A DNA stretch of 27,257 nt from a virus (Duplodnaviria; Heunggongvirae; Uroviricota; Caudoviricetes), in IMG/VR virus record IMGVR_UViG_2513237251_000001; one strand, written 5' to 3'. Position 1 is the stretch's first letter. Each line of letters opens with the position of its first letter. The notes beneath the pieces were generated by a model. That model worked only from the letters and a program-made list of their open reading frames with translations, was not told the DNA's origin and searched no databases. Positions 4,785-8,832 of this stretch are shown piece after piece. Position numbers and translations under genes: made by a program.

Positions 4785-5707
4785 ATGACAAATACAGCAA
4801 AAATACTCAACTTCGGCAGAGGTAACTTTGCCGGACAGGAGCGTAATGTGGCAGATCTCGATGATGGTTACGCCAGACTATCAAATATGCTGCTTGAGGC
4901 TTATTCGGGCGCAGATCTGACCAAGCGACAGTTTAAAGTGCTGCTTGCCATTCTGCGTAAAACCTATGGGTGGAATAAACCAATGGACAGAATCACCGAT
5001 TCTCAACTTAGCGAGATTACAAAGTTACCTGTCAAACGGTGCAATGAAGCCAAGTTAGAACTCGTCAGAATGAATATTATCAAGCAGCAAGGCGGCATGT
5101 TTGGACCAAATAAAAACATCTCAGAATGGTGTATCCCTCAAAACGAGGGAAAATCCCCTAAAACGAGGGATAAAACATCCCTCAAATTGGGGGATTGCTA
5201 TCCCTCAAATTGGGGGATTGCTATCCCTCAAAACAGGGGGACACAAAAGACACTATTACAAAAGAAAAAAGAAAAGATTATTCGTCCGAGAATTCTGGCG
5301 AATCCTCTGACCAGCCAGAAAACGATCTTTCTGTGGTTAAACCGGATGCTGCAATTCAGAGCGGCAGCAAGTGGGGAACAGCAGAAGACCTGACCGCCGC
5401 AGAGTGGATGTTTGACATGGTGAAGACCATCGCGCCATCAGCCAGAAAACCGAATTTTGCTGGGTGGGCTAACGATATCCGCCTGATGCGTGAACGTGAC
5501 GGACGTAACCACCGCGATATGTGTGTGCTTTTCCGCTGGGCCTGCCAGGACAACTTCTGGTCCGGTAACGTGCTGAGTCCGGCCAAACTCCGCGACAAGT
5601 GGACCCAGCTCGAAATCAACCGTAACAAGCAACAGGCAGGCGTGACAGCCAGCAAACCAAAACTCGACCTGACAAACACTGACTGGATTTACGGGGTGGA
5701 TTTATGA
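4785..5707 (+). pseudogene. O: replication initiator O, frameshifted within the ori iteron array
   Basis: N-terminal part (4785..5393, MTNTAKILNFGRGNFAGQERNVADLDDGYARL...) and C-terminal part (frame of 5195..5707, ...SKWGTAEDLTAAEWMFDMV...DWIYGVDL) both match lambda O but lie in different frames; the switch is at a 23-bp iteron duplication. Confidence 0.8.
5134..5241 (+). repeat. ori-lambda iteron array, five O-binding iterons where I expect four
   Basis: TCCCTCAAAACGAGGGA (5134), TCCCCTAAAACGAGGGA (5154), TCCCTCAAATTGGGGGA (5178), TCCCTCAAATTGGGGGA (5201, exact repeat with its ATTGCTA spacer), TCCCTCAAAACAGGGGGA (5223); followed by an A-rich stretch (ACAAAAGACACTATTACAAAAGAAAAAAGAAAAG). Confidence 0.8.
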
Positions 5708-6015
5708 AAAACATCGCCGCACAGATGGTTAACTTTGACCGTGAGCAGATGCGTCGGATCGCCAACATCGATAACCAGGACATGACGATATCGGTCTGGG
5801 TCTTTCCTGATACTGATATTTCAGATGTATCGCGTGAGTTAATTGCGGCAATTAAACAGGGGTATCTAACAGTAAAAGCCGCCGGGGTATGGGCGGGGGG
5901 CATTGAAACACCTTCGGTGGAAACTCCATCGGAAGGCTCTAAATTTTTTGGTTTTGATATGGATAACGAATTCATCAGTGGTTTTGATGTAGGGGCATGG
6001 GGAGTATTACTCTGA
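5704..6015 (+). pseudogene. P: replication protein P, 5' stub (~21 codons) fused to unrelated sequence
   Basis: ORF starts with the ATGA overlap on the O stop and encodes MKNIAAQMVNFDREQMRRIAN as in lambda P, then diverges completely (IDNQDMTISVW...); deletion junction near 5766. Confidence 0.65.
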
Positions 6016-6809
6016 TGGCGAAAAATGACTTTAAAGCGTTTGCAACTGATCGAAATGCCAATGTTATGTCGCAGGAGGAATGGGAAGCGTTGCCTGCGCT
6101 TATATCCGGATTTACAGCAGGGAAAGCATCCAGTGCGCAAGTCAATAAGGTTATTCGGCAGGCCAGCTTTATTGCTGCAGCTCTGGCCCAGTTTGTAAGT
6201 GATAAAACGCAACGGGATGTGCTTGATAATGGTGATCTGCCCGGTTTTGTTGAATTGCTGGGATCGGGGTTTGCTGTTGAATACCTGAGCCGCAAGAATC
6301 CGTTTGGCGATATCAAATCGGACGGCACGGTGAAAACGGCTCTTCAAAACCTTGGTTTGGGAGAAGGTGCTCCAGCTATTGGCGTTCCGTTCTTCTGGCC
6401 GTCCGCTGCAATGCCAAATACTGTAATCGACAGCTGGTCCTGTATGGTGTTTTTGAAGTTCAACGGCGCGAAATTCTCTGCCACTGATTATCCTGTGCTG
6501 GCGAAAGTGTTTCCTTCGCTGGTATTACCTGAAGCCCGCGGTGATTTCATTCGTATCTGGGATGACGGGCGAGGTGCAGACGGTGGTCGCGAATTATTAA
6601 GCTGGCAGGCAGCTACAAACTTTTCTCAGTTTGCCGGGAATATAGGCGAAGGTGCGGGACACGCAATTAACTTTCATGATGGCATCGCCGGAAATCAGCC
6701 AGGATTTTCACGATTTAATTTCACCAGTAACTCTGTGGGTGATGGTGTGAATTTTGTTGCAGTCAGACCGCGAAATATTGCATTTAACTTTCTGGTGAGG
6801 GCTAAATAA
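5997..6809 (+). CDS. side tail fibre protein, C-terminal portion only (5'-truncated)
   Basis: 270-aa ORF with the C-terminal features of Mu S / e14 StfE-type fibres, directly followed by a tail-fibre-assembly gene (TAATG overlap); no N-terminal fibre shaft upstream, and the crossover site lies inside it. Confidence 0.65.
6343..6366. repeat. left crossover site of invertible segment (hix/gix/pix-like)
   Basis: TTCAAAACCTTGGTTTGGGAGAAG containing the dyad AAACC-TT-GGTTT; an inverted copy lies at 8198-8222. Confidence 0.7.
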
Positions 6810-7402
6810 TGAAACCTGTTTTTGATGAAAATGGGCTGGCTACAGTGCCGGGCGATATGCGTTGTTTTTATTATGATGCTGAAACATCTGAGTATACGGG
6901 CTGGTCTGATGAATATATTAATACTGGCGTAAGTATGCCCGCCTGTTCCACTGGTATTGACCCTGGCGAAAACATTCCGGGAAGAGTGGCAGTATTTACA
7001 GGTAAGGGATGGAGCCATGAAGAAGACCATCGCAATGAGACTGTTTACTCAATCGAAAATGGCGCAGCTGTTACAGTGGATTATATCGGTGCCATCAAAG
7101 ACGGTTATGTCACGATTTCACCGTTAACGCCATACGATAAATGGGATGGTGAGAAATGGGTGACAGACACTGAGGCACAACACAGTGCCGCAGTAGACGC
7201 GGCAGAAGCACAGCGCCAATCACTGATTGATGCAGCAATGGCTTCCATTAGTCTGATTCAGCTGAAGTTACAGGCCGGACGGAAACTGACTCAGGCAGAA
7301 ACAACCCGACTTAACGCCGTGCTGGATTACATTGACGCGGTGACGGCAACAGATACCAGCACCGCGCCGGATGTCATCTGGCCTGAACTGCCGGAGGCGT
7401 AG
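6809..7402 (+). CDS. tfa: tail fibre assembly protein (Tfa)
   Basis: 197-aa ORF starting at the stop of the fibre gene; C-terminal region (...LDYIDAVTATDTSTAPDVIWPELPEA) typical of Tfa/U chaperones. Confidence 0.8.
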   Translation: MKPVFDENGLATVPGDMRCFYYDAETSEYTGWSDEYINTGVSMPACSTGIDPGENIPGRVAVFTGKGWSHEEDHRNETVYSIENGAAVTVDYIGAIKDGYVTISPLTPYDKWDGEKWVTDTEAQHSAAVDAAEAQRQSLIDAAMASISLIQLKLQAGRKLTQAETTRLNAVLDYIDAVTATDTSTAPDVIWPELPEA

Positions 7403-7826
7403 GCCATTCAATATCTGGCGCACCGGAAGTATCGACCAGCTCCAGTGCGTCCAGATAATCCAGCCACAAATTATATTGCGTCAGTTCGTCACCTTTCAGA
7501 CGACCAATAGCCGCTTTACCGGGCCATTGCTTACTGTTCATGTATTCGTTGGCCTGGTTAATTAGTAGCTGTCTTTCTGATTCAGTAATTTCAATAAGCT
7601 CTTCATGCGTGGGTGGAGGAATATCTGCCCACGCAGGCAGCCCATCATCTCCGGCAATACGGATTTTTCCTTGTGGCGGTTCAGCCATAAACTCACTGAT
7701 AATATTTTGATTTACTTCCTTAGCGTCTGATAAATCCCATCCCTCTGATTTATATTTATCAATCATATCCACAGGGAAAAAAGCATTATGCCTTGCGCTA
7801 TAAACATATTCGTCCATATAAATCAC
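7374..7826 (-). CDS. alternative tail fibre assembly protein (inverted-orientation copy)
   Basis: 150-aa ORF convergent with and overlapping tfa by 29 bp; C-terminus LWLDYLDALELVDTSGAPDIEWPTPPAVQAR parallels that of tfa. Confidence 0.8.
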   Translation of the reverse strand: MIYMDEYVYSARHNAFFPVDMIDKYKSEGWDLSDAKEVNQNIISEFMAEPPQGKIRIAGDDGLPAWADIPPPTHEELIEITESERQLLINQANEYMNSKQWPGKAAIGRLKGDELTQYNLWLDYLDALELVDTSGAPDIEWPTPPAVQAR

Positions 7827-7837
7827 CCTGAATAAAA

Positions 7838-8210
7838 TTACTCACCAACAGCCCACCAACTGTAATTCATCGATACCGTGTCGCTGGTTGATGACGTTCT
7901 GTAAGCAGAATTAAAGCCGGTTAACGTTGGGCCTTCTGCAGTCATCACGAACCCTCGCCCAGCGCCTAAAGGCGCACCGCCATCACCAGAATGAGTAAGC
8001 ATGGCGCAGTCCGCTTTTTTGGGGAAAGGGATGCTGAATGTAATTCTCATTGTTTGCGTCGATAATGTCGGCGTAACCGCACCACGACCATATTGCAGGA
8101 TTTTCCCGTTGGGTAATTTCATCCATCCATTACCACTGGCAAAAGAGGCCATGTCCGGTATCTGATTTTCCCCTGTCCCCACATCCCGTTTTGCCGCTTC
8201 TCCCAAACCA
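7838..8210 (-). other. alternative tail-fibre C-terminal cassette (promoterless variable segment, expressed only after inversion)
   Basis: Minus-strand open frame ending at 7838 whose 5' end coincides with the right crossover site; glycine-rich fibre-tip-like sequence; motif LGLGE at the junction parallels NLGLGEG at the left site. Confidence 0.65.
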
Positions 8211-8222
8211 ACGTTTATGAAA
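8198..8222. repeat. right crossover site of invertible segment
   Basis: Reverse complement reads TTCATAAACGTTGGTTTGGGAGAAG, an inverted repeat of 6343-6366 with one core mismatch; 56 bp upstream of the invertase start. Confidence 0.7.
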
Positions 8223-8277
8223 ATGCAGAAATAACGAGCAAATGGCATCATTCCTGCTTTTGTCAGGGAGATCTACC

Positions 8278-8832
8278 ATGCTTATTGGCTATGTACGTGT
8301 GTCAACAAATGACCAGAACACAGATCTACAACGTAATGCGCTGAACTGTGCAGGATGCGAGCTGATTTTTGAAGACAAGATAAGCGGTACAAAGTCCGAA
8401 AGGCCGGGACTGAAAAAACTGCTCAGGACATTATCGGCAGGTGACACTCTGGTTGTCTGGAAACTGGATCGGCTGGGGCGCAGTATGCGGCATCTGGTCA
8501 TTCTGGTTGAGGAGTTGCGCGAACGTGGCGTTAATTTTCGCAGCCTGACGGATGCTATTGATACCAGTACCCCAATGGGGCGCTTTTTCTTTCATGTGAT
8601 GGGGGCCCTGGCTGAAATGGAACGAGAACTGATTGTTGAACGAACAAAAGCTGGACTGGAAGCTGCTCGCGCACAGGGACGAATTGGTGGACGTCGTCCC
8701 AAACTTACACCAGAACAATGGGCGCAGGCCGGACGATTAATTGCAGCAGGAATTCCTCGCCAGAAGGTAGCGATCATCTATGATGTTGGTGTATCGACAC
8801 TGTATAAGAAGTTTCCGGCCGGAGATAAATGA
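8278..8832 (+). CDS. pin: site-specific DNA invertase, serine recombinase (Pin/Gin/Cin/Hin family)
   Basis: 184-aa ORF MLIGYVRVSTNDQNTDLQRNAL... with the catalytic Ser in YVRVSTNDQ, resolvase core and C-terminal HTH; near-identical to e14 Pin as I remember it; SD GGGAG 8 nt upstream. Confidence 0.92.
   Translation: MLIGYVRVSTNDQNTDLQRNALNCAGCELIFEDKISGTKSERPGLKKLLRTLSAGDTLVVWKLDRLGRSMRHLVILVEELRERGVNFRSLTDAIDTSTPMGRFFFHVMGALAEMERELIVERTKAGLEAARAQGRIGGRRPKLTPEQWAQAGRLIAAGIPRQKVAIIYDVGVSTLYKKFPAGDK

Follow-up and report, generated by a model that had tools for sequence, protein, structure and literature searches.

A Pin/pix inversion switch in the defective prophage Sp1/CP-933H of Escherichia coli O157:H7

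Can a tail-fibre switch go on working in a prophage that has lost the virion it once equipped? The question is raised by a stretch of DNA of 27,257 nucleotides (IMG/VR record IMGVR_UViG_2513237251_000001; referred to as the window in its full length), whose source is Escherichia coli O157:H7; positions 5400-9000, in the prophage Sp1/CP-933H, are 100% identical to strains Sakai and EDL933. The Sakai annotation describes the prophage Sp1 as a 'lambda-like phage' of 10.6 kb, which adjoins the tRNA gene thrW, with the P4-like Sp2 coming next; the annotation of EDL933, in which the prophage is named CP-933H, matches that of Sakai. Head, tail, baseplate and lysis genes are absent from Sp1 in both annotations, as is Q, and the deletion of head, tail and lysis genes deduced in the initial annotation of this DNA is thereby borne out. 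The stretch that extends from a stub of the replication gene P to the end of the invertase gene pin very probably contains a working Din-family inversion switch of the Pin/pix type, left behind in the defective prophage.

The segment flips precisely at its crossover sites

The module is complete and of the G/P-segment type, as had been proposed: it comprises two inverted crossover sites, two fibre cassettes each accompanied by its own tfa chaperone gene, and pin. In the Sakai annotation the tail-fibre gene is ECs_0280, followed by tfaE, yfdK, yfdL and pinE, the last described as 'DNA-invertase'. The components of the switch are the following.

6015..6809, plus strand: fibre gene in the window orientation, 264 residues, ECs_0280 (611R5 alignment; PHROG tail-fibre families)
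6015-6351, plus strand: constant part of the fibre, 112 codons
6340..6365: crossover site pixL, CTCTTCAAAACC-TT-GGTTTGGGAGAA, core 6352-6353 (inverted-repeat search; 24/26 match to e14)
6354-6809, plus strand: variable cassette A, the fibre C-terminus
6809..7402, plus strand: chaperone for cassette A, 197 residues, TfaE-like (Pfam Caudo_TAP, E 2.3e-27; 65.5% to e14 TfaE)
7374..7817, minus strand: chaperone for cassette B, 147 residues, TfaP/YfdK-like, annotated yfdK (Caudo_TAP, E 2.9e-30; 54% to e14 TfaP)
7838..8209, minus strand: alternative fibre cassette B, with a gp53-like C domain (Pfam Gp53-like_C, E 1e-12)
8198..8223: crossover site pixR, TTCTCCCAAACC-AA-CGTTTATGAAAA, core 8210-8211 (inverted-repeat search; 26/26 match to e14)
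8278..8832, plus strand: pin, Din-family serine DNA invertase, 184 residues, pinE (Pfam Resolvase and HTH_7)
8298..8380: putative recombinational enhancer (Fis-binding 'sis') in the 5' end of pin (DNA conservation)

The best inverted repeat between 5600 and 9000 pairs 6347-6366 with 8197-8216 over 20 nt at 95% complementarity, and the 15-mer TTGGTTTGGGAGAAG is present in exactly two copies in the window, in inverted orientation, where 0.07 would be expected by chance. The crossover sites initially placed at 6343-6366 and 8198-8222 are read as two inverted 26-bp sites, each consisting of two imperfectly symmetric 12-bp half-sites around a 2-bp core. The cores, TT and AA on the plus strand, represent the same dinucleotide in inverted orientation and are asymmetric, as inversion requires. 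They enclose a segment of 1856 bp (6354-8209), in keeping with the approximately 1.85 kb that the invertase had been predicted to turn over.

The two orientations were sought in complete E. coli genomes by megablast with a query of 3601 nt (window 5400-9000), both in the window form and in a form flipped in silico. A genome was counted when one match covered at least 80% of the query, which spans the Sp1-specific junction between P and the baseplate gene. As the invertible part amounts to 52% of the query, it is impossible for one locus to be counted for both forms. The segment lies as in the window in 117 genomes and is flipped in 86, the listed matches all being full length and 100.0% identical. 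Both orientations, a check suggested in the initial annotation, are thus found, and the locus is not confined to a single one.

A closer view is afforded by clonal cattle isolates whose genome lengths agree within 1 bp: isolates 107 and 109 carry the segment in the window orientation and isolate 110 in the flipped one. After reverse-complementing the 3170 bp between the cores, isolates 107 and 110 display 0 mismatches over 44,915 bp. In all three the insertion sequence IS1203 is located inside tfaA (21844-23057 in 107 and 22022-23235 in 110, in the numbering of the retrieved stretches), and it lies on opposite strands in 107 and 110. As the insertion sequence was carried along in the flip, the inversion took place later than the insertion, and it tolerates a segment 1.3 kb longer. 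IS1203 also occurs at the Sp1 switch locus in strains DEC4E and F8492. A 1739-bp inversion around yfdK, within the thrW compound prophage, has moreover been reported to tell isolates of one outbreak apart (Greig et al. 2021; PMC8190617). Within clones, therefore, the segment is inverted exactly at the crossover sites.

It is exceedingly improbable that RecA-dependent recombination between the inverted repeats, or an assembly error, lies behind the differences in orientation. The sequence by itself does not reveal where within the 15 identical bp the strands crossed over, which leaves room for such a view, but the repeats have only 15–20 bp in common, a very small tract for RecA to work with; they match pix sites defined by experiment, and an intact invertase gene lies alongside. 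Both forms, furthermore, recur in finished genomes in the numbers given above, and the flipped form is the exact reverse complement between the cores.

Inversion exchanges the coding content of the fibre gene. When the segment is flipped in silico, cassette B enters in frame with the constant part and an open fibre reading frame of 236 residues results; the annotation of strain 110 contains a fibre of this length, and both fibre forms are annotated in RefSeq genomes. The cassette family represented in this segment is frequent in P2-like and other temperate myophages. The annotated yfdL open reading frame (ORF), at 7838-8248, extends across pixR. An enrichment of single-nucleotide variants in ECs0281 and ECs0284, reported in a short-read feedlot study, was not used, its likeliest cause being cross-mapping from paralogous copies of pin and tfa.

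These findings have a practical side, although its value is modest. The recurrent 'microevolutionary' inversion of the thrW prophage in long-read outbreak typing of O157:H7 is explained as programmed, reversible phase variation, and a flip of this segment is not to be scored as a phylogenetic distinction when isolates are compared.

Pin and other invertases

The initial annotation had described pin as full length, and the gene does encode 184 residues with Ser9 present. Residues 3-135 match the Resolvase domain (E 8e-52) and residues 138-181 HTH_7 (E 1e-15), and residues 1-181 align to the Gin structures 3uj3 and 4m6f with an E value of 5e-94. The active-site residues Arg7, Ser9, Asp64, Arg65 and Arg68 are all kept, and MLIGYVRVSTNDQ is the same as in Gin; the careful alignment that had been called for in order to detect an inactive catalytic serine thus finds this residue in place. 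The relationship to PinE of the e14 element is close, with 96.7% identity at the protein level and 92.6% in DNA.

In gin the Fis-dependent enhancer lies at the 5' end of the gene. The corresponding stretch of approximately 90 nt at the 5' end of pin is almost invariant, synonymous positions included, among Sp1 pin, e14 pinE, the invertase gene of prophage Sp18 and Mu gin. A strict scan of this 5' end for the Fis consensus gives one match in Sp1 (8348), one in e14 and two in Mu. Inversion in Sp1 would depend on Fis and on this enhancer. In mechanistic terms, Pin would pair the inverted 26-bp sites, cut at the 2-bp cores and rotate the strands, so that the intervening DNA is turned over; the C-terminal receptor-binding cassette and the matching Tfa would thereby be swapped after the constant part, to yield a fibre of either 264 or 236 residues.

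The adjacency of pin to its sites, the integrity of the gene and the inversion in an outbreak strain free of Sp18 point to Sp1's own Pin as the likely flipping enzyme. A number of observations weigh against this account of the switch. The enhancer within pin is probable, as judged from conservation of the DNA. The O157 genomes contain two to three pin-like places by blastn. In E. coli K-12 PinQ and PinR reportedly surpass PinE in turning over the e14 segment (PMC12529663). A promoter scan covering the fibre operon, pin and the leftward ORF across pixR returned 8 sites against 9.1 expected by chance. Lastly, sequence identity within O157 is uninformative on selection: the lineage is young and clonal, and conservation within it is for this reason no sign of selection.

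Two of these points, the multiple pin-like places and the behaviour of PinQ and PinR, favour the view that another Din-family invertase, either the Gin-like enzyme of Sp18 or one from a P2-like prophage, flips the segment in trans and that Sp1 Pin is dispensable or secondary. Sakai Sp18 offers a concrete candidate. This Mu-like prophage harbours a second invertible fibre segment (Sakai 5,072,806-5,075,338) with a fibre gene, an inverted chaperone and cassette and the invertase ECs_4992, which is 72% identical to Sp1 Pin and has inverted sites of its own, ...GATAACG-TT-GGTTTACGGGA and TCCCGTAAACC-AA-GGTTTCAGGGA, with the same TT/AA cores. The search for additional pix-like sites that had been recommended thus has a divided outcome: no further crossover sites beyond pixL and pixR are present in the window, and a second invertible segment exists elsewhere in the Sakai genome. 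Invertases of this family are known to be interchangeable: any of Pin, Gin, Cin and Hin can stand in for the others, and the e14 P segment is turned over by PinQ and PinR as well as by PinE (PMC12529663). The same source summarizes that gin can be complemented by Pin and that PinE flips two foreign segments, the H region of Salmonella and the G segment of Mu. Whether Pin could act in trans, a question raised in the initial annotation, is therefore largely settled for the family, and cross-talk between Sp1 and Sp18 in Sakai is plausible in either direction, although many O157 strains lack Sp18. As an account of the Sp1 inversion, however, the action of a foreign enzyme in place of Pin is rather unlikely. 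The Sp1 gene is intact, with every catalytic residue in place, and adjoins its sites, and the outbreak strain with the yfdK inversion has a vacant Sp18 site (PMC8190617). Flipping by Sp1 Pin and by an enzyme in trans are, in addition, not mutually exclusive.

Origin, expression and possible host use

The initial annotation had the P stub joined to a truncated fibre gene. The first half of this description is accurate, as 21 codons of P are followed by a jump, formerly placed at about 5766. The match to lambda is collinear over window 3322-5767 at 97.4% identity, homology to phage vB_EcoM-611R5 begins at 5768, and a three-way alignment sets the junction at 5767/5768 with zero microhomology. The second half needs correction: what positions 5768-6012 encode is the C-terminal stretch, residues 144-226, of a tail/baseplate protein, and the fibre gene that follows is full length. 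The junction thus unites two gene fragments.

5704..5767, plus strand: 5' stub of a lambda-type P, 21 codons plus 1 nt (lambda match; PHROG 36642 on residues 1-21)
5768..6015, plus strand: 3' end of a DUF2612-like tail/baseplate gene, residues 144-226, 83 codons (homology to 611R5 and SEN34)

The two fragments are fused in frame in an ORF of 103 residues (5704-6015), whose TGA overlaps the ATG of the fibre gene (ATGA, 6013-6017). Residues 18-103 of the fusion align at 95% identity with residues 141-226 in a 226-residue protein of 611R5, which is encoded between the baseplate-J gene and the fibre gene. The equivalent in phage SEN34 is gp26, to which the baseplate remnant is 80% identical; the match of the remnant to Pfam DUF2612 is weak and sub-threshold and falls in the C-terminal part of the model. 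EDL933_RS01455 and its RefSeq equivalents (window 5756-6015) bear the label 'phage replication protein, missing N-terminus'. Judged by these alignments, the label is an annotation error that extends across O157 genomes, and the fragment after the P stub is to be re-annotated as the remnant of a baseplate gene.

It would follow from the earlier description that the fibre gene itself was truncated by the deletion, that no functional fibre can be made and that the invertase alone is meaningful. The absence of every other virion gene from Sp1, and hence of any Sp1 particle to use a fibre, is in line with this idea, which is nevertheless very improbable and is refuted by the alignments. The fibre gene keeps its own ATG, its residues 1-264 align to residues 1-264 of the 611R5 fibre at 97% identity and its first 90 residues are 67% identical to the SEN34 fibre, starting at residue 1. 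This end-to-end alignment, together with the SEN34 match, indicates that the fibre ORF is complete and that the truncation affects the gene upstream of it. A fibre of 264 or 236 residues is still encoded along with its chaperone, and the missing part is the virion. No head, tail, baseplate or lysis gene being left, the fibre is useless to Sp1 itself. Service to the Mu-like virion of Sp18 was considered and rejected, as the N-terminus of the fibre is of the SEN34 type and dissimilar to those of the Sp18 fibre and Mu S.

The parent of Sp1 would have been a temperate myovirus whose genes were in lambdoid order and in which an immunity and replication block of the lambda type was coupled to a baseplate-fibre module of the 611R5/SEN34 type. 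In 611R5 the order is repressor, cro, replication, Q, lysis, terminase, head, tail, baseplate, 226-residue protein, 264-residue fibre, tfa, inverted tfa and invertase, and by comparison of the sequences this is likely to be the parental architecture of Sp1. A single deletion would then have fused P at codon 21 with the baseplate gene at codon 144, with loss of Q and of the lysis, head and tail genes, and would have left the fibre operon and pin whole.

The early region upstream of the junction is a separate matter. The immunity region (window 3326-4752) hardly differs from that of lambda: Cro and CII match their lambda counterparts at 100% identity, and cI, with its ORF intact, agrees at 233 of 237 residues. 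O157:H7 strains that bear Sp1 may thus be immune to phages of lambda immunity. The O gene (4785-5707) displays, relative to lambda, a 23-bp tandem duplication at about 5177-5199, inside the iteron array of the replication origin, where it creates a fifth iteron. The duplication is responsible for the annotated frameshift in O. With O frameshifted and P cut to 21 codons, both replication genes are dead, and they are listed as pseudogenes in the Sakai annotation (ECs_0277 for O and ECs_0279 for P).

The promoter recognizable in the scan is lambda pR alone (4087-4115). Fibre expression would accordingly arise only by read-through from pR after inactivation of cI, through cro, cII, O and the truncated P into the coupled start of the fibre gene.

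Most likely the switch is a relic that still runs and not a function under selection. A different possibility, for which the chances appear slim, is that the host has taken over the stranded switch. Phase-variable surface or periplasmic proteins derived from the fibre, or the short ORF across pixR, might mask outer-membrane receptors and block phage adsorption, so that part of an O157 population would be protected from particular phages; their expression might be tied to loss of cI by way of the fusion of P with the baseplate gene. Receptor masking and an adsorption block have been reported for the homologous e14 segment (StfE2; Kirigo et al. 2025). The leader ORF that runs from beside pin across pixR is kept, reading MPFARYFCIFINVGLGE here and MPFACYFFIFINVGLGE in e14, and the neighbour of pin is a known defence gene, PD-T4-3, which gives this end of the prophage the character of a defence islet. 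On the other side, the variable cassettes are only 41–47% identical to those of e14, the promoter signal for the fibre operon does not rise above chance, PADLOC gives no match for the fibre or pin, and conservation within O157 is explained by clonality. Were the host to profit in this manner, the switch, PD-T4-3 and the lambda-type immunity would together make Sp1 a small defence island and not junk. O157, with its full-length fibre ORF, its cassettes unlike those of e14 and the adjoining defence gene, would in any event offer a natural test bed for phage defence by invertible fibres of cryptic prophages.

The gene convergent with pin occupies window 8890-9714 on the minus strand (ECs_0285, annotated at about 8890-9663) and is a near full-length match to PD-T4-3 (PADLOC, E 2.3e-140). 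Its product contains a LEM-3-like GIY-YIG nuclease domain, and the gene occupies the same slot as the restriction gene mcrA in e14. Within the P4-like Sp2 (window about 12014-24900) RefSeq names gene products 'ABC-three component system' proteins; the AAA ATPase gene that follows them is a pseudogene in Sakai. These genes look like another defence cargo beside Sp1.

Comparison with known systems

The closest relatives of the baseplate-fibre module are found in the temperate myophages 611R5, 606R2 and 683R1 and in the Salmonella phage SEN34 (Brunovirus), which encode the homologous 226-residue tail protein and fibre in the same order as Sp1. Phage 611R5 also shares cassette A, both chaperones and the crossover sites, whereas SEN34 has no inversion module. 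The records of SEN34 and of the 611R5 type contain complete morphogenesis regions, unlike Sp1. The 611R5 invertase is annotated at 315 nt (9475-9789) and its homology to pin ends at window 8538; on this alignment, it seems that the 611R5 record carries a truncated invertase and the dead Sp1 a complete one.

Gin of Mu, Cin of P1 and Hin of Salmonella belong to the same enzyme family and act on the same 26-bp sites with a 2-bp core as are found in Sp1. The 5' end of the invertase gene, the enhancer region of Mu gin, is conserved in Sp1 pin. In Mu and P1, as in Sp1, inversion exchanges the fibre C-terminus together with its chaperone. These are, however, viable phages in which the switch sets the host range, in contrast to Sp1, which has no virion. 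The Mu segment is also longer, at about 3 kb as compared with 1.86 kb, and Mu S is unrelated to the constant part of the Sp1 fibre.

The P segment of the cryptic prophage e14 with its invertase PinE, in E. coli K-12, is the classical instance of such a module (Plasterk and van de Putte 1985; Mehta et al. 2004). The layout is common to e14 and Sp1: a constant fibre part, a site, a cassette with tfa, an inverted tfa with its cassette, a second site and pin. Both are defective prophages, both have a nuclease-type defence gene adjoining pin (mcrA in e14, PD-T4-3 in Sp1), and the last 28 residues of the fibre constant part are 93% identical. The differences are equally clear. The element e14 resides at icd and Sp1 at thrW; the N-terminus of the e14 fibre is of the StfP type, unrelated to the SEN34/611R5 type of Sp1; the upstream baseplate gene of e14 encodes the DUF2313 protein YmfQ, whereas that of Sp1 is DUF2612-like and unrelated. 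The early region of Sp1, unlike that of e14, is lambda itself, the variable cassettes are only 35–47% identical, and the chaperones 54–65%. Sp1 is thus neither e14 itself nor its orthologue, on account of the separate integration sites and the unrelated fibre N-termini and upstream genes. Comparison of the sequences identifies the Sp1 module as a mosaic relative of the e14 P segment, with which it shares pin and the sites.

No paper found in a search of the literature explicitly ascribed the Sp1 inversion to Pin and its crossover sites or described the fibre ORF as complete. The switch as such is nonetheless already known, since genome annotations include the element, its mechanism is a classical one, an inversion at the locus is in print and the inversion of e14 has been quantified: PinE, PinQ and PinR all act on the e14 P segment, and approximately 30% of a wild-type K-12 culture has it in the inverted form (PMC12529663; PMC4272514). 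Set beside these systems, the Sp1 switch is real but ordinary, a textbook member of the Din family.

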